Shown here: piece after piece, positions 5,973-40,983 of the stretch | How the letters are laid out: each line of letters starts with the position of its first letter | How positions within the stretch are numbered: position 1 is the first letter of the stretch | Virus record (IMG/VR): IMGVR_UViG_3300020046_003171 | Coordinates: 1-40,983 of that record | DNA: 40,983 nucleotides | Strand: one strand, 5' to 3' | Source of the DNA: a virus | Program-made: the position numbers and the translations under genes | The notes under the pieces: model-generated | What the model saw: the letters and a program-made list of their open reading frames with translations, nothing else | Databases searched by the model: none | Told to the model about the DNA's origin: nothing

Positions 5973-7518
5973 TGAAGCGGTTCCCTGAGCTGAGTGCAGA
6001 TTGGCGAGCTAAGAAGCTCTGATTCATTCGTTGCAATATCGTATCATGAGTTTGCTGAGTGTCTGGAATGTAGAGTGTTTTGTCTATCATGGCGATTTTA
6101 ATGGCGTCATAGGCGGTATCGCATATGTCGTCATTTTTATGGGTATTATTCGCCGTGATTTTCTTCATATGCTTGATGCACATTGGGGCATGCTTCGCAT
6201 CTTCAGTAAAGGTCACGAGCTTGGCGGCTAAAATGGGCTGCATCTCTAGGAACCTGGCAGTTTTGCTGCCTGAGGCTTTGGTTCGTTTCACTTCTCGAAT
6301 TTGCAATCCTCGCATGTCACTCAAGACGCTACAGAGGGTAACGCCGCTGGATTTCTTTTCAATTGCCGCAACCAGTGGTTTGACAGGATGAAGCATGCAA
6401 TCCCCATAGAAAGACATGAAAGCTCCATGCAAATCCTTTGGCTCTATTCTCATTTCTTGGCAGTCTAGCCAGTGGAGCGCATAGCGTCCTGTTTTTTGGC
6501 CCATCTCTTCGATTTCATAGATACCCCAAAAACTAAATACAGTGGCATCGTTGTAGGATTTATCGGTTTCCGCAGTATCCGCAGTAATGAATGTGCAAAG
6601 TATGTTTGGCTCTCTCGGTAAGAATAGAAAGTCTTTTTCCTTAAAGAGCGCACCACCTGCAGGGATTGGGTCTTGCTGAAACTGTGACGCAAACGCATAT
6701 TCGTTCTTGTCCTGTTTCTCCCTTAGCATTTCCAATGGATTCACTTCAGGGTAAAGCGCGTTACCTGCATCATCGATGGACTTAAGAATGACCTGCTTAT
6801 ACTTTCTTTCGTCTCTGCCGCTGATTAGATAGGCTGCAAGGTCATCTTCATGAAGTCGCTGACCAATGAACAGAATGGGCACTGATGGTCCCCTGGGTCG
6901 CTGGACGATGGTTTCTCGGTAATTGGTAATGACCGATTCCCTAATCGTGTCTGAGTGAACCTCGTCCGGTTTGTGGGCATCGTCGATGATGACTGCGCCG
7001 GTAAAACGGTTTTGGTTTGGCAAACCAGCATCTTGCCCCGTAATAGCGCCAGACGCGCCGAACGCCTTAATAGAGCCACCCTGCACTGTCTGAAAGAAAT
7101 CCTTTGCTCTCGAATCATCGCGTATCCTCACCTCAAATAAATCGCCATACAATTTGTTTTGAATGATTCTTCTTATGAATTCAGTGTGCTTTGCAGCGAG
7201 GGATTTTGAATAGCTGATGTAAAGGTAATTGCTATCAGGCCAACGAGATAACGTCCAAGCAACCCACATCGAACACATGACGCTTTTGCCATAACCAGGC
7301 GGGACATTGATGATAACGTCGCGCTCTTCGAGTCTGAATACTTTAGTGAGTTCGCGGGAAATGGTGATGAAATGCGACTCTCTACCAATAGGCTGAGAGA
7401 TAACGAAGTCGCGTCCAGTGACTAAGGGGAAGAAAGTTTGAACGAATAAAAGAAAAGAACCCCAAAGCTGAGCTTTTATTTCTTCGGGGTCAACATCAAG
7501 TTCAATAGGGTTTCTCAT
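5965..7518 (-). CDS. terL: Terminase large subunit (517 aa)
   Basis: Carries a Walker A-like VPPGYGKS and a Walker B-like AVIIDDAHK, with an Asp-rich nuclease half at the C-terminus. It sits between TerS and portal. Confidence 0.85.
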   Translation of the reverse strand: MRNPIELDVDPEEIKAQLWGSFLLFVQTFFPLVTGRDFVISQPIGRESHFITISRELTKVFRLEERDVIINVPPGYGKSVMCSMWVAWTLSRWPDSNYLYISYSKSLAAKHTEFIRRIIQNKLYGDLFEVRIRDDSRAKDFFQTVQGGSIKAFGASGAITGQDAGLPNQNRFTGAVIIDDAHKPDEVHSDTIRESVITNYRETIVQRPRGPSVPILFIGQRLHEDDLAAYLISGRDERKYKQVILKSIDDAGNALYPEVNPLEMLREKQDKNEYAFASQFQQDPIPAGGALFKEKDFLFLPREPNILCTFITADTAETDKSYNDATVFSFWGIYEIEEMGQKTGRYALHWLDCQEMRIEPKDLHGAFMSFYGDCMLHPVKPLVAAIEKKSSGVTLCSVLSDMRGLQIREVKRTKASGSKTARFLEMQPILAAKLVTFTEDAKHAPMCIKHMKKITANNTHKNDDICDTAYDAIKIAMIDKTLYIPDTQQTHDTILQRMNQSFLARQSALSSGNRFNG

Positions 7519-8002
7519 TCTCTTTCAGCTTTTCCATCCGTTCCTTGATAGTAGTAGCTGCTTCTTTAGGAGGCTTTGTTGTTTCAACTTGCATTCTTTC
7601 GCCATAAATACGCGGAACAAGTTTGACGCCAATCCATTTACGCATATCAATTCGCAATCTAGAACGAGCAACAAATTCGCCGTTCATAATGGGATTTCCA
7701 TTGCTGTCGATTACAACATCTTCTGAAGAATCATCGGAAATTGGCAGGCATTGCTCAACAAACAATTCTGCTTGACAACGCTTAGCTTCTGCCCACATCT
7801 CTCTAAACTCTTGAATTTTATAACGCCATTTGCGAATAGCTTGCTCATGAGGAAAGTGTGGATGCGCTTCGAGGATTTTTTTCATAGAGAGAGTGGATGT
7901 TGCCACGGCCTCACATATTTCAGCGGCTAACTCAGGATCGTAAACATTTTCGATTGGGCGTCCCATTTTTGCAGGTTCGGGCTTGTCTTTTGCCTTGGCC
8001 AT
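7502..8002 (-). CDS. terS: Terminase small subunit (166 aa)
   Basis: The N-terminal GRPIENVYDPELAAEICEAVATSTLSMKKIL..IRKWRYK..EFREMWAEAKR matches the common HTH-type TerS pattern. It overlaps the terL start. Confidence 0.65.
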   Translation of the reverse strand: MAKAKDKPEPAKMGRPIENVYDPELAAEICEAVATSTLSMKKILEAHPHFPHEQAIRKWRYKIQEFREMWAEAKRCQAELFVEQCLPISDDSSEDVVIDSNGNPIMNGEFVARSRLRIDMRKWIGVKLVPRIYGERMQVETTKPPKEAATTIKERMEKLKENEKPY

Positions 8003-8884: not shown

Positions 8885-9052
8885 ATGAAAGCATCTGAAC
8901 TTATAAAGCAACTTGAAGAATTAATAAAAATTAATGGCGACCTGCCGATTCTTGTTGGTGACACAATAGGGTTAGGCTATGAAGAAGCAGCATTTGTAGA
9001 AATCGAAAAATCACGGGTAGAAAATATAAAACAAGGGATTTTAATAAAATGA
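8885..9052 (+). CDS. Small early protein (55 aa), member of a 4-copy small-protein family
   Basis: The start was moved to ATG 8885 because an AGGA lies 6 nt upstream. The protein begins MKASELIKQLEELIKINGDLPILV. Confidence 0.55.
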   Translation: MKASELIKQLEELIKINGDLPILVGDTIGLGYEEAAFVEIEKSRVENIKQGILIK

Positions 9053-9282
9053 CAGAAATCTTCAACGCAGACAGCGCAAGAGCACTTATGAAAGACGTCG
9101 ATAACAATTCTTACTACATTGACGCAATAAGAAGAATAAAATGCGCAGCTCAAGAAGCATACAACGAGGTAACAATTAACTTAGTTCGTCCAGAAGTTGA
9201 AAACAAACTCAAAACACTAGGATTTAAAGTTAGCAGTTATACTGCAAAATCTGGCTCTAGCTATACGAAAATAGAATGGTGA
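9049..9282 (+). CDS. Hypothetical early protein (77 aa)
   Basis: Coupled to the upstream gene by an ATGA overlap. Confidence 0.5.
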   Translation: MTEIFNADSARALMKDVDNNSYYIDAIRRIKCAAQEAYNEVTINLVRPEVENKLKTLGFKVSSYTAKSGSSYTKIEW

Positions 9283-9287
9283 ACATA

Positions 9288-9395
9288 ATGGATGATTACA
9301 ACGAAACCTACGAACTCCCTCCCCGCGAAGGCGATAAAAAAACCGACGAGGAAGGCGACTGGTATTTTGAAGACGGACAATGGTGGTCAGAATGA
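9288..9395 (+). CDS. Acidic micro-protein (35 aa, below ORF-track cutoff)
   Basis: Hand-translated as MDDYNETYELPPREGDKKTDEEGDWYFEDGQWWSE. It fills a gap, and its TGA overlaps the next ATG. Confidence 0.45.
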   Translation: MDDYNETYELPPREGDKKTDEEGDWYFEDGQWWSE

Positions 9396-9604
9396 AATTA
9401 GAAGACATTATAGACGATGTTAATGAACTAATTAACGACATACAGCAAATTAGTGTGATTACAATGGATGAAAACAAAATTGATAAGTATGGAATTTTAG
9501 TAGCTCTTGAAAAAATTAAAACAAAGCTACAATACGCAGAATCCGATATCCGCTTAATTAAAGAATCCATCGATGAAAAATTCAAATTGATAGGGATTTG
9601 GTGA
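9392..9604 (+). CDS. Hypothetical early protein (70 aa)
   Basis: Start set at ATG 9392 (ATGA overlap with the preceding micro-ORF). Predicted coiled-coil-like sequence. Confidence 0.5.
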   Translation: MKLEDIIDDVNELINDIQQISVITMDENKIDKYGILVALEKIKTKLQYAESDIRLIKESIDEKFKLIGIW

Positions 9605-9789
9605 TGGTAACTGTTGAGCGCCTTATTAAAATTTTAGGTTTCTATAATCCAGAGTTATTAGTTTTGATTCAAATGGAAGGCTTTGAGGATATTAAGTTAT
9701 CAAGAATAGGAACCCTTGATTTTAAAGTCGAAATAGTTGAAGAGGAACTAAGTGGGTACGTAGCATTAAGGGGTATTCCAGAAGAATGA
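9604..9789 (+). CDS. Small early protein (61 aa), member of the 4-copy family
   Basis: Start at ATG 9604 (TGATG overlap). The protein begins MVTVERLIKILGFYNPELLVLI. Confidence 0.5.
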   Translation: MVTVERLIKILGFYNPELLVLIQMEGFEDIKLSRIGTLDFKVEIVEEELSGYVALRGIPEE

Positions 9790-9995
9790 GACACGTCTAC
9801 TTTATATCCTCAGACGGCGGCACCTGGTACGACATCGATATTCACAGAGTCATCCCCTTTCGTAAAATTTACCAGCTTGCGAAAGGCCTTGAAGAACATA
9901 CAGGAAAATTCATGAAACTGATTTTAGTCGAGAAAGACGGCTCAGAATCAGACATAACAGAATGGGTGTACAAAAAAGCCGAGGGGCTTAGATGA
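9786..9995 (+). CDS. Hypothetical early protein (69 aa)
   Basis: ATGA-coupled ORF. Confidence 0.5.
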   Translation: MRHVYFISSDGGTWYDIDIHRVIPFRKIYQLAKGLEEHTGKFMKLILVEKDGSESDITEWVYKKAEGLR

Positions 9996-20603: not shown

Positions 20604-21368
20604 TTATGGCTTTGTTGCACCGTGATTACAATTAGAGCCATCATTATGAATTCCATTATTCCCAGACCTTCTAAAAATTAAATAACATTCCCATGAGCAA
20701 TATTTTCTAGGGATGCTCTTTGTGGATTTTACATCATTTTCACAAATTAAACATTTTGTAATTATGCCCATCTTCCTGCACGTATAACTGCAGTGCTTCG
20801 TATAAGATAACCCCTGCTGGGAAATAAAAAATGTTTTTCCACATTTAATGCAAGCCAACGTAGATTTTGCATTAGATTTGATGCTTCTATTCAATATTTG
20901 CTCAAGCTTAGTTGCCCATCGGCAATTTTCAGGATAATAGTTGTCGTCATTATTTATGCGATCTATAGACAGTGTTCTATCTTTCTTGAATCCCATATCT
21001 GCTATAAAATTCTCGAACTTATGCCATCGCTCGCAAACTTTTATTCCTCTGCCTCCGTAGGAATCATACCAAGCATTTTTTGGGTTATTGCATCTTTGGA
21101 GCATATCTCTCCATGCGCCATATTCTGAGGTTTTTGAAAGATCGTGCCTTTTTACGATCTCAAGATGGAGGCAACCGCATGATTTGCTTTTGCCGGACTT
21201 TAAATCTCCCCATGTTATGGTATTTTTATTTCCACATATACATATGCACAGGACGGTGTTTTTAAACTTTTTCCCATTTTTTCTATATCCTGGGAAATAA
21301 TCCAAAACTGTCCATCTGTTAAACTGCTTGCCTATAAATAGATTTTTGTCTAAGGTGGGATTAGTCAT
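20604..21368 (-). CDS. HNH-family/homing-endonuclease-like DNA-binding protein with C-terminal Zn-finger repeats (254 aa)
   Basis: Contains the motifs W.VL..C.C.CG..LKSGKSKSCGC, YGAWRDMLQRC, YGGRGIKVCERW and SIDRINNDDNYYPENCRWAT. These are typical of a widespread phage endonuclease-like family. The C-terminus carries two CxxC...CSxxC units. Confidence 0.55.
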   Translation of the reverse strand: MTNPTLDKNLFIGKQFNRWTVLDYFPGYRKNGKKFKNTVLCICICGNKNTITWGDLKSGKSKSCGCLHLEIVKRHDLSKTSEYGAWRDMLQRCNNPKNAWYDSYGGRGIKVCERWHKFENFIADMGFKKDRTLSIDRINNDDNYYPENCRWATKLEQILNRSIKSNAKSTLACIKCGKTFFISQQGLSYTKHCSYTCRKMGIITKCLICENDVKSTKSIPRKYCSWECYLIFRRSGNNGIHNDGSNCNHGATKP

Positions 21369-22190: not shown

Positions 22191-22835
22191 TTATGCCACC
22201 GCTCTTAAAATTTGATAATAAACAATACAATCATTACCAGGATTGCCACTAAAAGTTAAAGTCAAAGTATTGTTGGTAACTGCGGTTTGTAACAATGTAA
22301 CGTTAGCTGTCCCGTTGTCTTTAATAACGCATGACGCAATGTCAGTTGCTAAAGCGCCGTTAACGACAATGGCTTCAGCCGCAGCACCACCAACTGTTGT
22401 ATATTGAGCACCGTATTTAACAATATGTGAAGGCGTAATACCAGCAGCAAGTTTTGCTAATGTTACGTTCGCATCTGCAATCTTTGCAGTAGTAACGGCA
22501 CTAGCTTGAATCGCAGCAGTATCAACAGAGTTTGCACCAACTTCAACAGCCGTTGTAATAACGCCGCTAACTACCGCCGTAACTGTTAATTGAATAACAC
22601 CATTAGAGCAAACGCAGTTAATAATGTCACCAACACCAAGCTGATTAGTAAATCCTGAAATAAAGAAATCAGAAAACGGTGTGAAATAACCTGCGGTAGA
22701 AACAGTTGCAATTGTATCTGTTGTAGTACCGTATCCCCAAATCAATGGAACTCGCGTCTGTGGAATACCATTAACATAGTATGCCAATGGCGGATTTAAT
22801 GATTGCTGAAACAAATTACTTGGAATAAAAGCCAT
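22191..22835 (-). CDS. Short tail fibre/receptor-binding protein (214 aa) sharing its N-terminal domain with the 842-aa fibre
   Basis: MAFIPSN.., GY.TT.DT.ATV.T.GYF, INC.CS.G, and NSV.TAAIQ..AVT align by eye with residues 1-105 of ORF 25486..28014. Confidence 0.6.
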   Translation of the reverse strand: MAFIPSNLFQQSLNPPLAYYVNGIPQTRVPLIWGYGTTTDTIATVSTAGYFTPFSDFFISGFTNQLGVGDIINCVCSNGVIQLTVTAVVSGVITTAVEVGANSVDTAAIQASAVTTAKIADANVTLAKLAAGITPSHIVKYGAQYTTVGGAAAEAIVVNGALATDIASCVIKDNGTANVTLLQTAVTNNTLTLTFSGNPGNDCIVYYQILRAVA

Positions 22836-22855: not shown

Positions 22856-22990
22856 TTATTTACGTTTTTTAACTTTTTTATCTCGGTCCATCAGTTTCTC
22901 TGCGTTCTTCTCAATCTTTTCCGCAGCATTATAAATGGCTTTCGATTCTTTCTTATCTTTCTTTAAATGAGCTTTACTTACTTTTGGCAT
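22856..22990 (-). CDS. Lys-rich micro-protein (44 aa, below ORF-track cutoff)
   Basis: Hand-translated as [44 protein letters not shown]. Confidence 0.4.
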
Positions 22991-23123
22991 TTTTCTTACC
23001 TTTTGATTTTCCGGCTTTACTATAAGCAATAGCCGCAGCTTGTTTAACAGGCTTTCCGGCCCTTACTTCAGTAGCAATGTTCTCATTAATTACTTTTTTA
23101 GATTTGCCTTTTTTCAATGGCAT
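22974..23123 (-). CDS. Basic micro-protein (49 aa, below ORF-track cutoff)
   Basis: Hand-translated as [49 protein letters not shown]. An SD AAGGAAA lies 5 nt upstream. The [12 protein letters not shown] core resembles a widespread small basic protein family. Confidence 0.45.
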
Positions 23124-23132
23124 GGCATTTCC

Positions 23133-24083
23133 TTAAATACAAACAATAATTACTGCGCCTGGTCCGCCATCACCGCCAGCGCCGCCGATAGAGCCGACGC
23201 CATTAGTACCACCACCGCCACCACCGCCACATCCTATTCCGCCGTTTCCACCGGCGCCACCGGTTCCAACGGATGTATTTCCGCCGCCACCACTGCCACC
23301 GGATGCGATCATGGGTAAATCCATATCGCCAAATTGACCCCAAAAGTCATAACCAGTAATCCCAGCGCCGCCGCCGGCAGCACCGCCGTCTATTTGGGGG
23401 TAAAATGTGCTTGTTAAAATATTGCCACCAGCAAATGTGGTTGTTCCGGCGTTGACGCCGCCGCCTCCCGCGCCCCCACATGTGCAGGCTGCGCCAGTTA
23501 ACGGGGTTGCATTAGCGCCTACGGCAGCAGAGCCCCCGGTAACGCCTACATTTCCAGCCAAAAAGGAGTAGGACCCCAGAGAGGCGAGATGCACGGCAGA
23601 TATGAGCGCAGCGGCGGCATTTGCTGCGGGAGCCCCGGCAGTAGCTCCGTTGCCACCCAGCCCACCGCCACCACCGCCAGCATTTAAAATAAGATTGTTT
23701 GCGCCAGAATTAGGAGCTGTAGAAACCGTGCAGGCCGCCCCCGCAATTCCATTATTTGCGCCGCCACCCTGAGTTTGCCCTGCTGGCCCTTTTCTGCTGT
23801 TGCCTGGAGTAATATATATTTCTTTTGGTAATAATAAGGTTGAGACAAATATGGAAGAAACCGCTCCACCGCCCCCGCCGGCACCACCACCACCAGCGGT
23901 TGCCGCAGTTGATGCTCCGCCGCCGCCACCAGCGCCACCCGGCGCGATTGCCGTGATAAAAAGAAATTTTGCAGTTGTTGGCACAGAAAAAGAGAAAAAT
24001 GTAGCACTAGCAGTTGCCGGAGCTACCATGCCAACCCACATATGAGTCTGTCTGTTTTCGGAATAGTAATATTGTTGGTACAT
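23133..24083 (-). CDS. Glycine-rich protein, paralog B (316 aa), candidate polyglycine-type adhesin
   Basis: Gly runs (GGAGGGGG, GGGGAGGGGG, GGGGGGG) alternate with short hydrophobic strands. The C-terminus DMDLPMIASGGSGGGGNTSVGTGGAGGNGG..GGPGAVIIVCI is homologous to the upstream gene. Confidence 0.6.
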   Translation of the reverse strand: MYQQYYYSENRQTHMWVGMVAPATASATFFSFSVPTTAKFLFITAIAPGGAGGGGGASTAATAGGGGAGGGGGAVSSIFVSTLLLPKEIYITPGNSRKGPAGQTQGGGANNGIAGAACTVSTAPNSGANNLILNAGGGGGGLGGNGATAGAPAANAAAALISAVHLASLGSYSFLAGNVGVTGGSAAVGANATPLTGAACTCGGAGGGGVNAGTTTFAGGNILTSTFYPQIDGGAAGGGAGITGYDFWGQFGDMDLPMIASGGSGGGGNTSVGTGGAGGNGGIGCGGGGGGGTNGVGSIGGAGGDGGPGAVIIVCI

Positions 24084-24084
24084 G

Positions 24085-25050
24085 CTAAAACCAACTTATG
24101 ACAACGAAGCCTGGGCCGCCGCGGCCACCAGCGCCGCCCACTGAGGCAGCTCCATTCGTGCCACCACCACCGCCGCCACCTGAACCAGGACCACCATCAC
24201 CTCCTGCGCCGCCTGTGCCGACTAAAGTATTAGAACCTCCACCCGTTCCACCTGTAGAAACAAAAGGAAGATCCATGTCACCCCGATTCAATGTAAAATC
24301 AAAACCATCCAAACCCCTGCCACCGCCTGCTGCACCACCTGACTTTGTGGGCATAAAGCCACCTCCGGTCATCGCCCCGCCTGCGGCTGTTGTGGTACCT
24401 GCGTTTACAGCGCCACCACCTGAGCCTGCACCTGTTATGTTTCCCGCAGTCGCCCATGTTACTGCGGTACCAGCGCCCGTTGTTCCACCTGCGCCAGATG
24501 TTTGACCTGTGACAGAGAAAGTAACAATACCAAGCGAAGAAAGTGCCGCACCTGCTGCTGTGGTTATTGCAGTGGTTCCAGATGCAGCGCCCTGCGTAGC
24601 GCCAGAGGCGAGCTTTCCAGTACTTGTATTAGCACCCGATGAAAGACATATATAATTTGAGGCATTTGCGGATGGTCGTATTGACACAATGGAAGCGCGG
24701 CCAGCGTTCCCATTAGTAGCTGCTGCACCCCCTTGTACTTGACCTGTTCCTCCCGTACCGCCGGAACCAACAACTATAAATAGCACTGAAGGTATTAGGA
24801 TTGCTGGAACTATGACACTCATGTAAGGTGAGCCGCCACCGCCGGAGCCGCCCGCCCCTGCTACCCCAGCCGCGCTAGCTCCGCCACCACCTCCACCAGA
24901 TCCGCCAGATACACATAAGATTTGTATATATCTAGCGGTAGTTGGCTTATACCAGGTAAGCCAATTTGTAGTGACGGCACCTGGCATATCACCTATAAAA
25001 ACCTGTTGATTTTCAGATATCGAATAGGTTCGGTTATAGTTTTGGTACAT
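24085..25050 (-). CDS. Glycine-rich protein, paralog A (321 aa), candidate polyglycine-type adhesin
   Basis: Start set at ATG 25050 (TAATG overlap). This gives MYQNYNRTY, parallel to the MYQQYYY of paralog B. The C-terminus is DMDLPFVSTGGTGGGSNTLVGTGGAGGDGG..GGPGFVVISWF. Confidence 0.6.
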   Translation of the reverse strand: MYQNYNRTYSISENQQVFIGDMPGAVTTNWLTWYKPTTARYIQILCVSGGSGGGGGGASAAGVAGAGGSGGGGSPYMSVIVPAILIPSVLFIVVGSGGTGGTGQVQGGAAATNGNAGRASIVSIRPSANASNYICLSSGANTSTGKLASGATQGAASGTTAITTAAGAALSSLGIVTFSVTGQTSGAGGTTGAGTAVTWATAGNITGAGSGGGAVNAGTTTAAGGAMTGGGFMPTKSGGAAGGGRGLDGFDFTLNRGDMDLPFVSTGGTGGGSNTLVGTGGAGGDGGPGSGGGGGGGTNGAASVGGAGGRGGPGFVVISWF

Positions 25051-25484
25051 TAGTAATTTCCACCAATCGCACAAACTTGCCATGCAGTATTTGCAGCAAA
25101 AGCAGTGACACCAACAATAATTGTGTAAGATGCTGGTACTTGAAAATTAAGCGGAACCTCATACCCAAACGCAGCAGTTGTAGCCGTTACGTTAACTGCT
25201 GTGGCTGCAAGTGTAATTTCTTTTATTAGCGTATTGTTTGCGGCAGTTCCTGCGGAAGAGCCGTTATTCATGTAAATTCGACCCGCTGCCGCCGATGTCG
25301 TTGTCGAGCCAGATGTACTAATAGGCTGGAATATTAAGCGCTGTATAAACGCACCATTGGAACCCGCCGTAAAAACAAGCAGAACGTCGGCATCAGTACC
25401 TAACTGATTGGCGTCAGCAGCTGTAATAGAGGCCCAGCTAATGACAGGCGTAAGGGTATAAATCGGGTTTGTATTTGCTGGCAT
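25050..25484 (-). CDS. Small beta-rich fibre-associated protein (144 aa)
   Basis: Thr/Ala/Gly/Asn-rich ORF between the fibre and Gly-rich genes, coupled at both ends. Confidence 0.45.
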   Translation of the reverse strand: MPANTNPIYTLTPVISWASITAADANQLGTDADVLLVFTAGSNGAFIQRLIFQPISTSGSTTTSAAAGRIYMNNGSSAGTAANNTLIKEITLAATAVNVTATTAAFGYEVPLNFQVPASYTIIVGVTAFAANTAWQVCAIGGNY

Positions 25485-25485
25485 A

Positions 25486-28014
25486 TTAGTTACTAAAGCC
25501 TCCGAAGGTGATGGGGTACATTTTTCCGATAGTTACTCCGGCATTTCCTGGACTTGCAGCAACTGCCGCGTCGACATAAGCAGTCGTTGCCATTGTTGTA
25601 TTGTTGGTTAATGGCGCTTGAGTTGACCCTGTTACCGAGCTAGCTAATACGCAGGTTGGTGTTGCGGCATCTGCAGTTAATGTAATAAAAGCTGTATCAC
25701 TAGAGCCGCCAGTGTTTCGTGCGGACAATACTAAAGTGTTACCGCTTGTTGTTCCGGTAGATATTTTAGCTCCAAACAATTGCCTCCAACGGAAAGTTCC
25801 GCTACCAAGGTCAATTGCATTGTCAGAGCTTGCTAATAATGAAGTATTGATTGCGACGCTTGCTAAATTTCCAAGTGCTTTATTTGCTGCATTTGTTGAG
25901 ACCTGAGTATCTGCATAAGCGGTCGTCGCAATTTTTGTTGAGTTGTCATTTACCGACTGAGTGACTCCAGTCACGGCAGTCCCGATAGTTCCTGTTGTAA
26001 AAGTAAATGATGTGGCTGAGGCGCTGGCATATGAGCCGCCTGTTATTGTTTTTCCGGTAAACGTTAAAGCGCTAGGCAAAGATAATGTCCATGTTCTATT
26101 TGCGGACAAATCTTGAGCGCCGGCAGAGCTAGTAATTTCCGCCGCAGTTCCTGCAATAGTGATTGTCGTAGCGGGGCCTACGTAATCAGTCCCAGATACT
26201 CCTATGCTAACAACGCCAGTGCCTGTGGTTGATTTAAGAAGGCCGGTTGCTAGCGCGCTTAATGCTTGCTCATTAGTAAGGCTGCCATTAGGGGTTTGAG
26301 TAATATAAGTTGCCCCAATAGGAGCAGCTGCAGACGCTACAGCATCCGCATAGGCAGTCGTGGCGATTTTGGTGCTATTGTCATTAGCTGATTGCGTGGT
26401 AGCTGTCACAGAGCTTGCAAGAACCGCTGTAGGCGTATTGGCAGCGGTAATTGTAAAAAATGGTACTGAAACTGCGCCATCAACGTCCCAGCCGCTCAGA
26501 GTTAATGTATTTGCGTTTGTTTGGCCTGTAGAAATGTTTGTGGCGTAAACGTTTTTCCACCTTGTGGCGGGAATGCCCAGGTCGTCTGTATTGTCTGTAT
26601 CTGATACCAATGTAGTATTGATGGCTACGCCAGATAAATTGCTCAATGCCACATTAGCACCGCTGGCGGCGGCGGCTGCTGCATCAGCATAAGCAGTCGT
26701 AGCAAGCTTGGTGCTATTGTCTGATGCTGCCTGAGTAGTTGCTGTCACAGAAGATGCCAATACCGCAGTTGGTGTATTGTTTGCGGTGATGGTGAAAAAT
26801 GGGACGGCTGTAGCGCCATCAACATCCCAGCCGCTTAATGTAAGCGTGTCTGCAGCGGTGTCGCCAGTTTGTATACTTTTGGTATAAATATTATTCCAGC
26901 GAATTGCTTGGGTACCCAAGTCGTCGGTTACGTCAGTATCAGAGACTAACGTCGTATTAATCGCCACAGCCGCTAAATTGCTTAATGCTTGATTAGCTCC
27001 ACCAGCTGCTGCTGCAACCGCTGCATCTGTATAAGCTGTGGTGGCCAATTTAGTGGAATTGTCCAAAGGAGCTTGAGTTGTTGCGGTTATAGCGCTTCCT
27101 AAAACCCCGGTAGGCGTATTATTTGCCGTTAGCGTTAAGAACGGGGTCAAAGAACCGCCGTCGACGTCCCAGGCTCCGATAACGGTCGTATGACCTGCGG
27201 TATGGTCGGTCGTTATATTCGCTGCATATAAGTTATTCCAGCGCTTTGTAATAGAGCCTAAATCATCTGTCACATCCGTGTCAGATACGAGCGACGTGTT
27301 GATAGTTACGTTACCAGCATCAAGATTGCTCAGTTGTTCGTTAGCTCCACCGCCTCCGGCTGCAGCTACTGCATCGTCAACATATTCAGTCGTTGCAATG
27401 GTGGTATCGCTTGTTAATGGAGCTTGGGTCGTTGCTGTAACTGTGCTTCCCAATACGCCGGTTGGTGTATTGCTTGACGTAATAGTGAAGAAATCGACTT
27501 TAGCAGCGCCATCAACATCCCAGCCGCTTATCTTTAGCGTGTTTCCATTAGTGTGGCCCGCTTGAATAGAGGTTGCATATAACTCATTCCAGCGCAAACC
27601 ATCTATACCTAAATCATGGGTATCATCTGTATCTGGTATTAAAGGCGCATTGATTGCTGTAGCGGCAAGATTACTTAAATCATCATAGGCCAAGCCTGTG
27701 GTTTTAATCGGAGTTACTGCGCCATCTTGGATAGCTGCAGTATTAACCGAGTTTGGGCCAATAGAAATAAAGCTAGCCTGGGTTGTAACTGGGTCTATAT
27801 CAATGACTTTTAAAACAAGGATGCCATCGCTACAGGAGCAGTTTATTTGGTCATTAACGCTAAATTGGATTGACGAAGCATCTGGCCCATCTATGCCAAA
27901 ATATCCCGTAACCACAACTGTTGCTGTGGAATCTGTGGTTTCATAGCCGTATAAAGTTGGCCCTGGAAGATTCCATGGTGACCAACGTTGCATGTTACTT
28001 GGGATAAATGCCAT
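25486..28014 (-). CDS. Long tail fibre protein (842 aa) with five ~113-aa tandem modules
   Basis: Has an N-terminal MAFIPSN anchor domain. It then carries repeated units LSNL..AINT.LVSDTD.TDDLG...RW.N.Y...I.TG.T...TLTLSGWDVDGA...PFFTITA.NTPT.VL.S.VTATTQA..DNSTK[LI]ATTAY. Confidence 0.75.
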   Translation of the reverse strand: MAFIPSNMQRWSPWNLPGPTLYGYETTDSTATVVVTGYFGIDGPDASSIQFSVNDQINCSCSDGILVLKVIDIDPVTTQASFISIGPNSVNTAAIQDGAVTPIKTTGLAYDDLSNLAATAINAPLIPDTDDTHDLGIDGLRWNELYATSIQAGHTNGNTLKISGWDVDGAAKVDFFTITSSNTPTGVLGSTVTATTQAPLTSDTTIATTEYVDDAVAAAGGGGANEQLSNLDAGNVTINTSLVSDTDVTDDLGSITKRWNNLYAANITTDHTAGHTTVIGAWDVDGGSLTPFLTLTANNTPTGVLGSAITATTQAPLDNSTKLATTAYTDAAVAAAAGGANQALSNLAAVAINTTLVSDTDVTDDLGTQAIRWNNIYTKSIQTGDTAADTLTLSGWDVDGATAVPFFTITANNTPTAVLASSVTATTQAASDNSTKLATTAYADAAAAAASGANVALSNLSGVAINTTLVSDTDNTDDLGIPATRWKNVYATNISTGQTNANTLTLSGWDVDGAVSVPFFTITAANTPTAVLASSVTATTQSANDNSTKIATTAYADAVASAAAPIGATYITQTPNGSLTNEQALSALATGLLKSTTGTGVVSIGVSGTDYVGPATTITIAGTAAEITSSAGAQDLSANRTWTLSLPSALTFTGKTITGGSYASASATSFTFTTGTIGTAVTGVTQSVNDNSTKIATTAYADTQVSTNAANKALGNLASVAINTSLLASSDNAIDLGSGTFRWRQLFGAKISTGTTSGNTLVLSARNTGGSSDTAFITLTADAATPTCVLASSVTGSTQAPLTNNTTMATTAYVDAAVAASPGNAGVTIGKMYPITFGGFSN
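25549..27678. repeat. In-frame tandem repeat region: five ~340-bp (about 113-116 aa) modules, the fourth followed by a ~150-aa insert
   Basis: Module starts were counted at residues 113, 228, 344, 457 and 714 of the 842-aa protein. The DNA copies are visibly similar but diverged. Confidence 0.8.
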
Positions 28015-28357: not shown

Positions 28358-30406
28358 TTAGTTCTTTATGCCGTATAAATCAAATCTACCGCTAGTAATA
28401 TTGCCGGAGTCCATCATGAATCTAATTCCATCAACTGCTGTGGTTACCCCAATTAATACGCCACCCATACTTAAATTGTATCCAATCGTTGCGCCAGTTG
28501 CTGAGAATGACCCATTACCATATACCAATTTATGATTTGTTGTATTTGATGGATTTGATAAATAGAACAAACCGCTTAAACCTTTTGTGGATGTATTGGA
28601 AAGATATCCGGAAAGAGTTGCTTCTATTTCAGAATCTCCATTGCTAGAGCCATTCCCACCTAAGCTTACAGTCGCCCATCCATAATCAGATGCCGAGTTT
28701 CTAAAGACGCCGCCAGACCTTAAGCGCATCCAGAGAGTGGTTGCGTTAGTTGCAGGCAATAAATAATTAACCTTAACTACATATGTGTCGTAAGTGGCAT
28801 CAATTGCTGCGGTAAAATCAATAGTGGCACTCGCAGCTGCGGTGGCGGTTGCAAGATGTATCCATGAACCAGTTCCGGCAGCAGCAATAGCGTCCGCATA
28901 AGCTGTTGTTGCAATTTTGGTGCTGTTGTCATTTGGAGCTTGGGTAGTAGCCGTAACATTGGAAGCCAATACGCAACTTGGTGTGTTGTTCGCAGTCAAA
29001 GTAATGAATGGAGTAAATACTGCGCCATCAACATCCCATGCGCCAATATTTAATACATCAGCAGCTGTATCGCCGGTTTGTAGCGTATTTGCATAAATAT
29101 TACGCCAGCGAATGGCTTGTGTACCAAGGTCATCTGTTATGTCGGTATCGGAAGCCAATGTTGTATTAATCGCCACGGCAGATAAGTTATTTAAACTGCG
29201 CGTTGCTGCATCATCTGCAATTTGAGATACCACAAAAGCGGTTGTGGCTAGTCTTGTGTCGTTGGTATTAACGGCTTGTGTGGTACCCGTCATAAATGAC
29301 GCCAATGTCGCCGTTGGCGGGTTACCAGCAGTCATACCGAGAACAGGCGTATAAGCGGCACCACCGGTGTCATAAGCTGCTAAAAAGGTTGCATCCCCAC
29401 CGGTTTCACCAGTAAGAATTTGGCCCGTGAACAGTTCGCTATATCTTAATGACTCAGAACCAATATTTACCACGTCATCTAGACCTGGCAATAAATTAGT
29501 ATTAATCGCAGTTGCTGCCAAGTTGCTTAAAGCGGTATTGGCATAGCTGCCAGGGGAAAAAGTAAATTGAGCAAACGCAATTGGGTCTGTGTCAACCGTA
29601 ACAACGACATTGGTTTCTACCCAAGAAGTAACAGCATTCACGGTGCCGTTAGTAATCATGAATAAAGTGCCAGGTTGAATTTCGGCGGCCTGGTCATAAT
29701 CTGTGGCCCTGGTTAATACCCAGTTAACAGCGCCCGAGCCGACAGTGGTTAATGTATAGCAGCCGTTATGTTGGCTGAGGGTCTGGTTTTTCACTAATAT
29801 TCGAGAATTCAGAGGCGGAGAAACCCCATCAACCGAGAAAGCCGCCATAGCGCCAGCATTCGTTAGCGTCGCACCAACACCCGCACCAGCTTGTGTGGCA
29901 TTTAAATTCGCTGTCGTAGCAGCATAGCAAAGTGGTTGAACTGCAATGCCTGAGCCTGCCGCGTCAACATATTGCTTAGTTGCTGCACCCAAGGCAACTG
30001 TAGGGTCACCCGATAAAATTAAAGGCCCCGTCATTGTTCCGCCAATCAAAGGAACGCTGTTTAGATTCACGCCGCCGGTCAATGTATTGGTGCCATCACA
30101 GAAAATCATTAAAACCAAACCGGGCTCTAAGGTAACCGTTGGGCCACCATTGATATTTCCTGATTGCGTCTCAACCGTTAAATCAAGCGCTGAATCATTC
30201 CTGATAAAGCAGAAGAATTGCGTGCTAACGATAGCGACGGTCATTATCTGGGCAGTCCAGGGACCTGCACCAGAGAATCTAAACATCTTGCCTCTATCAG
30301 CAAGCACGATGTCATAATCTGCGGTTTTTTCAACCGTTTCTGCGGTTACCTGAAGAACGGTTCTAGCAGAATTTTGTGAGCCTAAAGTCGTTACTAAAGT
30401 TGCCAT
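28358..30406 (-). CDS. Tail fibre protein (682 aa) carrying two copies of the same ~113-aa module
   Basis: Contains the fibre motifs LIGGTMTGPLILSGDP..AATKQYVD and RILVKNQT..HNGCYT. Residues 293-511 repeat the LSNL..AINT..DDLG..RW..DNSTKIATTAYAD module. A C-terminal jelly-roll-like domain follows. Confidence 0.7.
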   Translation of the reverse strand: MATLVTTLGSQNSARTVLQVTAETVEKTADYDIVLADRGKMFRFSGAGPWTAQIMTVAIVSTQFFCFIRNDSALDLTVETQSGNINGGPTVTLEPGLVLMIFCDGTNTLTGGVNLNSVPLIGGTMTGPLILSGDPTVALGAATKQYVDAAGSGIAVQPLCYAATTANLNATQAGAGVGATLTNAGAMAAFSVDGVSPPLNSRILVKNQTLSQHNGCYTLTTVGSGAVNWVLTRATDYDQAAEIQPGTLFMITNGTVNAVTSWVETNVVVTVDTDPIAFAQFTFSPGSYANTALSNLAATAINTNLLPGLDDVVNIGSESLRYSELFTGQILTGETGGDATFLAAYDTGGAAYTPVLGMTAGNPPTATLASFMTGTTQAVNTNDTRLATTAFVVSQIADDAATRSLNNLSAVAINTTLASDTDITDDLGTQAIRWRNIYANTLQTGDTAADVLNIGAWDVDGAVFTPFITLTANNTPSCVLASNVTATTQAPNDNSTKIATTAYADAIAAAGTGSWIHLATATAAASATIDFTAAIDATYDTYVVKVNYLLPATNATTLWMRLRSGGVFRNSASDYGWATVSLGGNGSSNGDSEIEATLSGYLSNTSTKGLSGLFYLSNPSNTTNHKLVYGNGSFSATGATIGYNLSMGGVLIGVTTAVDGIRFMMDSGNITSGRFDLYGIKN
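28874..29530. repeat. Two copies of the fibre module shared with gene 25486..28014
   Basis: DTDITDDLGTQAIRWRNIY here compares with DTDVTDDLGTQAIRWNNIY in the 842-aa protein. The DNA is also recognisably similar. Confidence 0.75.
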
Positions 30407-39114: not shown

Positions 39115-39393
39115 CTATGCACTCGTAATGGTTTCAATCGTGGCATTTGTTGTTGTTAGTGGGTTAGCAGCTACGGTAATGAACTGCATTTTCCCAACAG
39201 TGGTGTTCATCCACTGCGTGCCTACCGGCATAATTCTTTCAAACGTGTAGCTTGTAATAAGGGTAACCTGCGCATTCGTGAGATTGGGCAAAGTCCAGCC
39301 GTTATTACTTAAGCTTTCCAATAAGACCTGATTCAGTTGGCGCTGATAATCTTCCTCGTAGGGACCTTTTAGGATGGTTGGAATATCACTCAT
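39115..39393 (-). CDS. Small virion-module protein (92 aa)
   Basis: ATGA-coupled to the nozzle gene. No recognisable family. Confidence 0.4.
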   Translation of the reverse strand: MSDIPTILKGPYEEDYQRQLNQVLLESLSNNGWTLPNLTNAQVTLITSYTFERIMPVGTQWMNTTVGKMQFITVAANPLTTTNATIETITSA

Positions 39394-40983
39394 GCTGTGT
39401 ACTCCAGAACGCCGCTAGTGGCCACTATGCGGCCCATAGACCAGAAGCGTACCTTGGGGGTCCATTCGTTACAGTAACCCATTCTCTGCCATCGTAGGAT
39501 GTTTTGACGGTATCCAAGTGGGCGCATTCTGATGCCTACTGTATTGCTGTAGGTCATGCCGCCATTCTTGGAGAAGCTTAAATCAATACGGCCTCGATGT
39601 AGTTCTCTGATGCAGTCATCAGGGTTGCCGTCTTCTGGAATCACCTGGACATAATCTGACGCATCTTCTGTATATATTCTGTCTTCATCTTCGGTAATCA
39701 TCAGAATCAAGCAATCATCTCGCCCTAAGAAATCATCGTTACCTTGTTCAATTGTGAAGGTAAATGAATTCACGGTGAATGGCGTGCTCTTGGGTGAGCG
39801 AAATGTGGCGCAGATGCGAATACGCTGCATATCGAAGATGTAGCGTGGGTCTTCATCGTCTGCTTGGTCTGGCAGATTCTCATTGATAGTTGTTAAATCT
39901 GTGCTCAGGCGATATAGGGAGCCATTGCGCAATGAGATGAAGTAATTCTCTTGTTCGAAGTAAACAACCTGGCGCATAGGGTGATAGTTTAAATGTTGGT
40001 CGCTTAAGTTAAAGAACTTCTGGACGGTAAAATCGTACATGATCGTCAAATTGTGGCGATTTTGCTCAACTCTGTCAGTGTCAATTAGCACCGGGTCTTC
40101 TTCACCATAGAAGGTTAAGATGTAGAATACGTGACCATCCTGCCTAAAGAATGTAGCTGTCGATTTCTCTGGATTTCTCAAGGAACCCAATAAATAGTCG
40201 ATACCATCCGTTGAGATACGCTGCGCGCCTTGGGCGGTATACACCATAATGGCCGGAGAGTTAGACTCATTAACCCCAAGCCATGCAACATATTCATCAG
40301 ACGAAGCGATGGTATCGACCGATAAACAGCCATAATCCACGTTAACCGAGGAGTTTCTACGATAAGGCAACTCTGCAGGAACGCTGGTGTGAATTTCACT
40401 CACTGTTCGACCAATCACCAATACGTTATTTGCTTGCCCTGGAATGCGTTTAATCGCCAATGCAAAGTCAGGCTTTGTTTCTAATGCCATTGTTGCACGG
40501 TAGGTAATCGTGGTGGCCGTGCCAGGAACATAAGCAAACCATTTGGCACCATTGTTTGTTCTGTCGCGATTACCAAACAAGAAAAACGTATTATGATACG
40601 TTACGTAATTCGGTATTAAATCTGTTCCAAAGTGACCATCCGCCTGAATCGTCAGGTTGGGAGCCATAGAGTGGTTATAAATATAAGCATGCAAGCCATC
40701 AACAATACAAATTTGACTGTTGAGATTCTCATCGATAAATACTTCGCCTGAAGACGTCTCAAGGTTTCCCACCAGAATAAATCCGAGAGTATTAGAGATA
40801 CGGTAAACGGCACTGCTAATAACAGCAAGAATAAAACCGCCCCGGGTACTGGTAAAAGCGCCACGGCCTTCTCCCGATTCAATAAGCTCTAAAACCCTGC
40901 GGTAACCAGCAAAGTTGACAAGCCAGCCATCAGATAGAAACATGTTATATGTTTTTTCACTCGATACTTTAGGATACCGACCA
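39390..40983 (-). CDS. Tail nozzle/hub protein (tail tubular B / gp10-like), window-truncated; full gene is complement(join(39390..40862,1..183)), 551 aa
   Basis: Large beta-rich protein immediately after the adaptor gene. The frame stays open to the window edge and resumes at 121..183 in the duplicated start. Confidence 0.5.
   Translation of the reverse strand, partial: GRYPKVSSEKTYNMFLSDGWLVNFAGYRRVLELIESGEGRGAFTSTRGGFILAVISSAVYRISNTLGFILVGNLETSSGEVFIDENLNSQICIVDGLHAYIYNHSMAPNLTIQADGHFGTDLIPNYVTYHNTFFLFGNRDRTNNGAKWFAYVPGTATTITYRATMALETKPDFALAIKRIPGQANNVLVIGRTVSEIHTSVPAELPYRRNSSVNVDYGCLSVDTIASSDEYVAWLGVNESNSPAIMVYTAQGAQRISTDGIDYLLGSLRNPEKSTATFFRQDGHVFYILTFYGEEDPVLIDTDRVEQNRHNLTIMYDFTVQKFFNLSDQHLNYHPMRQVVYFEQENYFISLRNGSLYRLSTDLTTINENLPDQADDEDPRYIFDMQRIRICATFRSPKSTPFTVNSFTFTIEQGNDDFLGRDDCLILMITEDEDRIYTEDASDYVQVIPEDGNPDDCIRELHRGRIDLSFSKNGGMTYSNTVGIRMRPLGYRQNILRWQRMGYCNEWTPKVRFWSMGRIVATSGVLEYTA
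40863..40983. repeat. Terminal duplication, copy 2 (identical to 1-121)
   Basis: Base-by-base identity with the window start. Confidence 0.95.

Follow-up and report, generated by a model that had tools for sequence, protein, structure and literature searches.

Tandem glycine-rich proteins of the polyglycine-rich domain family, with a conserved jelly-roll neighbour, in the tail-fibre module of a probable P22-like podovirus

The stretch of DNA analysed here (the window) covers positions 1 to 40,983 of the IMG/VR virus record IMGVR_UViG_3300020046_003171 (40,983 nucleotides, nt), and its tail-fibre module contains two adjacent minus-strand genes, A and B, which encode glycine-rich proteins of similar length. 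Both proteins belong, as free-standing members, to the polyglycine-rich domain (PGD, or 'brush') family of phages, represented in Pfam by Gly_rich_2, and each is predicted to be a TNF-like beta-sandwich in which long glycine-rich hairpins form the loops between the strands. Homology and the predicted fold support the view that these hairpins would pack as a lattice of polyglycine-II (PGII) helices. The two genes are as follows, with lengths in amino acids (aa):

24085..25050, minus strand: glycine-rich protein A, 321 aa with MYQNY as its start, predicted to be a free-standing beta-sandwich with a polyglycine-rich domain, Pfam Gly_rich_2
23133..24083, minus strand: glycine-rich protein B, 316 aa, starting MYQQY, a paralog of A

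An earlier note on this DNA, made from the letters without database searches, had described two adjacent genes for paralogs of about 320 aa, with MYQ(N/Q)Y starts, glycine runs of up to seven residues and a shared C-terminal motif, and this description proved right in all particulars. A and B are 43% identical over 302 residues (BLASTP with composition adjustment, E = 1e-9), and 43-46% identical over the comparisons made. Since the non-glycine motifs KPTTA(K/R), VNAGTTT.AGG, GDMDLP and GGPG..V(V/I)I also align between them, the similarity is more than a shared composition. Glycine makes up 27.7% of A and 28.8% of B; the longest run has seven residues in both (291-297 in A, 286-292 in B), accompanied by other runs of four to six, and the C-terminal motif is seen in A, in B and in their relatives. 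The guanine-cytosine content is 54% over the gene pair against about 40-47% nearby, as is expected from GGN codons. The MYQNY start of gene A is preferred, since a start at the first ATG of its open reading frame (ORF), at 25083, would run 34 nt into the upstream gene, and since P0001, the closest homologue (72% identical to A), likewise begins with MYQNY. From that start the genes are packed tightly: the ATG of gene A has one base in common with the TAA of the upstream gene (TAATG), and a single base separates the TAG of gene A from the ATG of gene B. Neither A nor B turned up when exact sequences were looked up among the clusters of the collection. The cluster of P0001 has one further member, which differs by 9 residues in length; judged by length, this is put down to another choice of start and not to an indel in a tract.

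The family assignment comes from profile searches and from a structural model. A matches Pfam PF21722 (Gly_rich_2, an entry called 'glycine-rich domain' with no named function) at 25.2 bits against a gathering score of 24.3 (E = 2e-5), over profile positions 4-225 of 226, and 74 of the 96 homologues in the family alignment match the same profile. B alone gives no Pfam match and no reportable PF21722 score; it does match phrog_754, 'minor tail protein', with E = 8.8e-5. When the family profile was compared with the sequences of the Protein Data Bank (PDB), it found the 'Tail wing brush, gp33' of phage Bxb1 (E = 1.8e-6), the alignment covering the first strand/Gly-hairpin/strand unit and the C-terminal GDG.V.I appearing only in a sub-threshold segment; a phmmer search of PDB sequences with A itself gave low-complexity noise only. 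The AlphaFold2 model of A, built on the 96-sequence alignment, has a predicted local distance difference test score (pLDDT) of 91.4 and a predicted template modelling score of 0.89. It contains about nine short beta-strands, has no helix before residue 169, and is of low confidence at residues 1-10. Its glycine-rich segments are placed with pLDDT above 90, and DSSP assigns them neither helix nor strand, a result compatible with PGII.

Foldseek comparison of this model with the PDB gave the Bxb1 tail tip as the strongest match (9D93_Q, chains Qa and Qb, E = 2.8e-11 and 8.6e-11, probability 1.0), together with the fibre of phage Pam3 (7YPX/7YFW, E = 2e-3 to 5e-3, probability 0.99) and the glycine-rich domain of ALK (E = 5e-3 to 0.2, probability 0.1-0.6, template modelling (TM) score about 0.2). 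Among the ALK structures, 7NX3 was matched with E = 5e-3 (probability 0.5-0.6) and 7LS0 with E = 0.07. The polyglycine-II fold proposed in the earlier note therefore stands at the level of the fold, through Foldseek and the profile match to Bxb1 gp33, but the fold is not a new one. The likeness to the ALK domain, also proposed there, was recovered as a match, but a weak one and with no sequence similarity. The likeness to gp38 of phage S16 was not: none of the 39 Foldseek PDB matches at E<=10 is S16 gp38 (6F45), the sequence and profile searches did not find it either, and the resemblance is to the TNF-like, ALK-type arrangement.

Among the known systems, Bxb1 gp33 (PDB 9D93, chains Q) is like A and B in that it is free-standing, of similar size (267 aa), of the same predicted fold and surrounded by tail genes. 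According to PMC12646305, it is a virion protein held by gp30 and gp31. However, Bxb1 is a siphovirus of a mycolic-acid host, and the gp30 and gp31 through which gp33 is mounted have no counterpart in the window, where the conserved neighbour is instead a 144-aa jelly-roll protein and the genes form a diverged tandem pair. Pam3 gp24 is a TNF-like sandwich whose six loops build a four-layer glycine-rich lattice, resembling that of ALK and, locally, that of S16 gp38 (PMC9608196). Polyproline-II (PPII) helix bundles have been identified in both Pam3 gp24 and Bxb1 gp33 (PMC13243192). A protein of the same kind, the 29 kDa Pam3-gp24-like TFP_Y of Klebsiella phage SCNJ1-Y, binds lipopolysaccharide (LPS) and gates DNA ejection, and it is in the glycine-rich domain that its host-range mutations fall (PMC12671077). 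Pam3 gp24 and TFP_Y thus share with A and B the TNF-like sandwich and the glycine-rich loop lattice, at about 29 kDa, but they are the whole fibre of minimal myoviruses, whereas A and B sit downstream of separate long fibres. Furthermore, fibres of the Pam3 type carry an N-terminal helical trimerisation/docking domain and are followed by a chaperone gene, whereas no N-terminal helix is predicted in A. The glycine-rich domain of ALK/LTK (Pfam Gly_rich, PF12810) likewise combines a TNF-like module with a PGII helix lattice; it differs in belonging to the ectodomain of an animal receptor kinase that binds a cytokine, and no sequence similarity to the family of A was detected. S16 gp38 is comparable in concept, that is, as a separate small adhesin which caps the fibre and places a glycine-rich PGII sandwich at its tip, but according to PMC9608196 it has a beta-helix middle domain in place of the TNF-like one and a three-layer lattice of 10 motifs.

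The family is large. A profile search of cluster representatives (50%-identity clusters, 1.84 billion in all) gave 8,217 representatives at E<=1e-3 and 1,513 at E<=1e-30, and among the best 150 of the 8,217 matches nearly all are full-length, free-standing proteins of 280-350 aa. In BFVD there are 196 structural matches at E<=1e-3, many of which are named 'glycine-rich domain-containing protein' or, in mycobacteriophages, 'minor tail protein'; there are also longer proteins with the fold inside them, under tail-fibre, collagen-repeat or lectin-like names. Pfam PF21722, the BFVD matches and the thousands of metagenomic clusters show that the fold and the family are known and widespread, although they are almost entirely unannotated. 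So far, few phages have had their polyglycine-rich 'brush' domains characterised (S16, Pam3, Bxb1 and some predicted cases), and their distribution has been called an open question (PMC13243795). The earlier note held that such a fold is not known to be a standard part of P22/T7-like podovirus tails; the literature searched contains no paper describing a polyglycine-rich domain in a podovirus. The fold is not new to phages.

Immediately upstream of gene A lies the gene for the small protein mentioned above:

25050..25484, minus strand: 144-aa jelly-roll protein, immediately upstream of A, a candidate adaptor or platform for the glycine-rich proteins

This neighbourhood is conserved. The order is that of a long fibre gene, the gene of the 144-aa protein and then one to three glycine-rich paralogs, and a member of the 144-aa family stands directly upstream of a glycine-rich gene in seven of the eight distinct loci (the window, L001, L005, L007, L008, L013, L014 and L015). 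A close relative, represented by the four assemblies L001-L004, has the same pair (322 and 320 aa) after the 144-aa gene. In the other loci found from PGD homologues, the number of PGD copies is one in L005, three in L007 and three in L008, always with the 144-aa family upstream, its member being shortened to 55 aa in L005 and enlarged to 257 aa in L008. When loci were found from distant homologues of the 144-aa protein instead, a PGD gene followed immediately downstream in two of three (L014, L015); in the third, L013 (5001-6946), a 510-aa LamG-like protein with a weak Laminin_G_3 match occupies the PGD position, which looks like a module swap behind the same 144-aa partner. The phage backbones around these loci differ: P22-like in the window, Phage_capsid_4/SU10_adaptor/Phage_stabilise in L005 and L014, Phage-tail_3 in L013 and a 156-kb contig in L008.

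The 144-aa protein has no Pfam, PHROG or NCBIfam match. Its AlphaFold2 model (pLDDT 89.7) is a TNF/C1q-like jelly roll, and its Foldseek neighbours are trimeric proteins, namely the cement protein of phage KHP40, ExsFA/BxpB, RANKL/TRAIL/CD40L and adiponectin. The idea that it is an 'uninserted' paralog of the PGD beta-sandwich was tried and rejected (hhalign probability 0.6%). Identity between the window and L001 is 95% for the 144-aa protein, 72% for A and 58% for B, as would be expected if the mount is conserved and the distal modules diversify. The upstream fibres of all eight loci share a similar short C-terminal peptide (about 14 residues, ...LGLxYxIxxGxFSN-like), which may be a docking peptide. 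It is seen at the ends of otherwise unrelated fibre proteins, for example GKMYPITFGGFSN, LGLTTVIAQGIFSN and LGLTYCISTGQFSS. The linkage, the varied backbones, the jelly-roll model, the identities and the fibre C-termini, taken as a whole, suggest that a conserved mount may carry exchangeable, faster-evolving distal modules.

A further-reaching reading is possible but doubtful: the 144-aa gene and its one to three paralogs would be a mobile host-recognition cassette spread across unrelated backbones (P22-like, SU10-like, a 63-kb backbone of the Phage-tail_3 type and that of a 156-kb genome), in which the jelly roll docks on the fibre C-terminal peptide and displays interchangeable PGD or LamG-like binders, and in which the paralogs co-assemble to give combinatorial specificity. 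If this were true, the receptor-binding architecture would be one that has not yet been reported in podoviruses. Should the adaptor-plus-binder model be right, it would provide host-range prediction and engineering with a receptor-binding unit that is compact and swappable. The locus reveals no new fold or principle. What it adds is modest, namely the link to a conserved jelly-roll partner, with which the brush proteins travel, and evidence of cassette modularity across phage backbones; free-standing brush proteins are seen to be common, diversifying and often tandemly duplicated in the fibre modules of uncultured podovirus-like phages of about 40 kb.

As for the history of the paralogs, A and B are closer to their positional counterparts in L001 (72-73% for A, 58-65% for B) than to each other, so the duplication predates the split between the phage of the window and that of L001. 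The three copies in L008 are 53-56% identical mutually and at most 38% identical to all others, a difference which indicates that they arose independently. The three copies in L007 are only 29-34% alike. Taken over the window and L001, L008 and L007, these identities thus show a family trait: tandem duplication has recurred, and the copies have then diverged. B is, moreover, a mosaic with respect to its L001 ortholog (B at 23133-24083, the ortholog at 8971-9933): residues 200-316 are 85-100% identical and residues 100-180 only 20-45%, which suggests recombination or localised diversification.

A different source of variation had also been proposed in the earlier note: slippage in the GGN-rich DNA could change tract length in frame within populations, which would make the glycine tracts a contingency locus. 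The DNA is indeed rich in GGN and has short 9-nt repeats, but every glycine tract is written in mixed GGT, GGC, GGA and GGG codons, and Tandem Repeats Finder reports only 2-2.6 copies of the 9-nt units, with a longest perfect repeat of 2.4 copies and no period-9 arrays above 2-3 copies in the gene pair. The GGGGGGGTNG tract and the N-terminal tracts have a constant length in nine close homologues. Over the 96 homologues the gap fraction is 0.00 at residues 281-300 and the tracts have almost no indels; insertions gather after residues 128, 193, 232, 242 and 276, in non-glycine loops outside the tract cores. Finally, no difference separates the four assemblies of the L001 phage, drawn from different samples, in the 2,367 nt that span the 144-aa gene and the pair. 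At the level of assemblies, then, the data do not bear out in-frame slippage, which is very unlikely to shape these genes; a packed PGII lattice needs tracts of fixed length.

With regard to function, A and B are proposed to be made late, from a common transcript, as part of the tail-fibre module of a P22-like podovirus, and to touch the host surface (LPS or some other glycan or lipid of the envelope) as binding modules, whether primary or accessory. On balance they are probably virion-borne, distal host-binding modules, a role to which four things point: the position in the fibre module, the homology to a virion 'brush' protein, the occurrence of the fold inside longer fibre-type proteins of BFVD, and the LPS binding of TFP_Y. 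As the earlier note suggested from the duplication, the two proteins may also differ in specificity. Several observations weigh against this host-binding role or against parts of it. According to PMC12646305, the base of the Bxb1 wing, gp30, which is thought to be needed for the assembly of gp33 into virions, can be deleted at a modest fitness cost, the wing being dispensable for laboratory plaques; a natural Bxb1 relative is without homologues of gp30, gp31 and gp33, and a receptor role of gp33 is described as unproven. The Bxb1 mounting proteins have no homologues in the window, and the model of A is without the N-terminal alpha-helical docking domain of Pam3 gp24, that is, of the minimal-fibre type; for both reasons the mode of attachment is conjectural. 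The Foldseek TM-scores to solved structures are modest (0.37-0.54, the root-mean-square deviation being 9-10 A). The most variable segments, at about residues 120-200 and 250-260, lie outside the glycine tracts and partly in predicted strands.

The main rival accepts the virion location and treats A and B as 'brush' decorations which adhere non-specifically, or weakly and reversibly, to envelope lipids or polysaccharides and are dispensable, specificity being carried by the fibres. The small price at which Bxb1 loses the wing thought to hold gp33 speaks for it, and so do the proposal that mycobacteriophage PGDs touch lipids through exposed hydrophobic residues, the presence of at least three fibre-like proteins in the locus, and the identity of the relative's four assemblies across the pair. 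However, A and B diverge much faster than the 144-aa protein, and B is a mosaic, which would fit host-range determinants; besides, TFP_Y of SCNJ1-Y shows a specific and mutable interaction with LPS. Pure decoration is therefore rather unlikely, although it deserves more weight than the other alternatives. It has also been considered that A and B are fibre-assembly chaperones like T4 gp38 and are not in mature virions, since B weakly matches phrog_863 'tail fiber assembly' (E = 0.007) and small genes downstream of fibre genes often encode chaperones, such as Pam3 gp25. But the homologous or structurally similar Bxb1 gp33 and Pam3 gp24 are virion components, the Pam3 chaperone gp25 has a different fold, and one to three diverged paralogs would be unusual for a chaperone, which makes this explanation improbable. 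The high content of glycine, alanine, serine and threonine, together with the automatic names 'collagen' or 'PE-PGRS' of some BFVD relatives, could also be taken to mean that the ORFs are low-complexity artefacts or collagen-like repeats. This reading is effectively refuted by the thousands of full-length homologues and the confident globular model; the non-glycine motifs are also conserved, and the sequences of A and B have no G-X-Y periodicity, only glycine runs and irregular GGxGG motifs.

The remaining genes of the fibre module lie on both sides of the cassette:

28358..30406, minus strand: 682-aa fibre-like protein with PHROG tail-fibre and decoration matches, having repeats in common with the 842-aa fibre
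25486..28014, minus strand: 842-aa long fibre with internal repeats of about 110 aa, upstream of the cassette
22974..23123, minus strand: lysine-rich small ORF of 49 aa, between B and the next fibre-like gene, no Pfam match
22856..22990, minus strand: lysine-rich small ORF, 44 aa from its ATG, no Pfam family match
22191..22835, minus strand: 214-aa protein whose N-terminal residues (about 105) match the 842-aa fibre, the last gene of the fibre module

The 842-aa fibre has a weak tail-fibre PHROG match, and its repeats are 50-55% identical to those of the 682-aa protein; at the equivalent position in L005 and L007 the fibres carry PF19264 (DUF5907). The L001 ortholog of the 842-aa fibre (6497-7564) has only 355 aa, so the number of repeats alters the length of the fibre between close relatives. 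The 214-aa protein is 41% identical to the 842-aa fibre over residues 1-104/118, both begin with MAFIPSN, and this suggests, from the shared N-terminus, that the two may use one attachment site; the 214-aa protein keeps the same position in L001 and L007 and has weak tail-fibre PHROG matches. NCBIfam gave zero matches for A, B, the 144-aa protein and the fibres. Where the window has its two lysine-rich ORFs, L001 has ORFs of 65 and 44 aa. In L003 (4147-6494) and L001 (4111-6486) the two genes upstream of the fibre differ (665 and 116 aa against 680 and 107 aa), and nonetheless these assemblies do not differ at all in the 144-aa gene and the glycine-rich pair; variation in the population thus sits in the neighbouring fibre genes.

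With respect to the genome as a whole, bases 1-121 of the window recur exactly at 40863-40983, which makes it a complete phage genome, circularly closed (or overlapped by the assembler), of 40,862 unique bases. PHROG families identify the small and large terminase, portal, scaffold and coat from 8002 down to 1697 and, after the wrap, a gp10-like 'head closure Hc3' hub at 39390-40943 (portal 156, coat 283, Hc3 578), and the family searches of the window's proteins found no tail tube, sheath or tape measure. The best cultured matches of the portal, at about 21% identity, are in phages of about 37 kb, including Shewanella phage X14 (Bocovirus X14), whose annotation lists a P22-like portal, coat and tail accessory factor. 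With the portal, the coat, the gp10-like hub and the gene order present and all identities low (about 21%), it is a reasonable inference that the phage is a P22-like podovirus, and a distant one. Among 50,697 phage records, neither megablast with the fibre region nor tblastn with protein A found a match; in the tblastn case the low-complexity filter of BLAST may be the cause. A scan of genome contigs for related loci gave 600 pattern matches with 0 confirmed, and a scan of viral contigs gave three weak loci. No tRNA genes were found in the window, and a promoter/terminator scan returned fewer sites than shuffled sequence. An HNH endonuclease gene (20604-21368, minus strand; phrog_374, E = 3e-54) lies next to the putative lysis genes, where the structural module borders on the early one.

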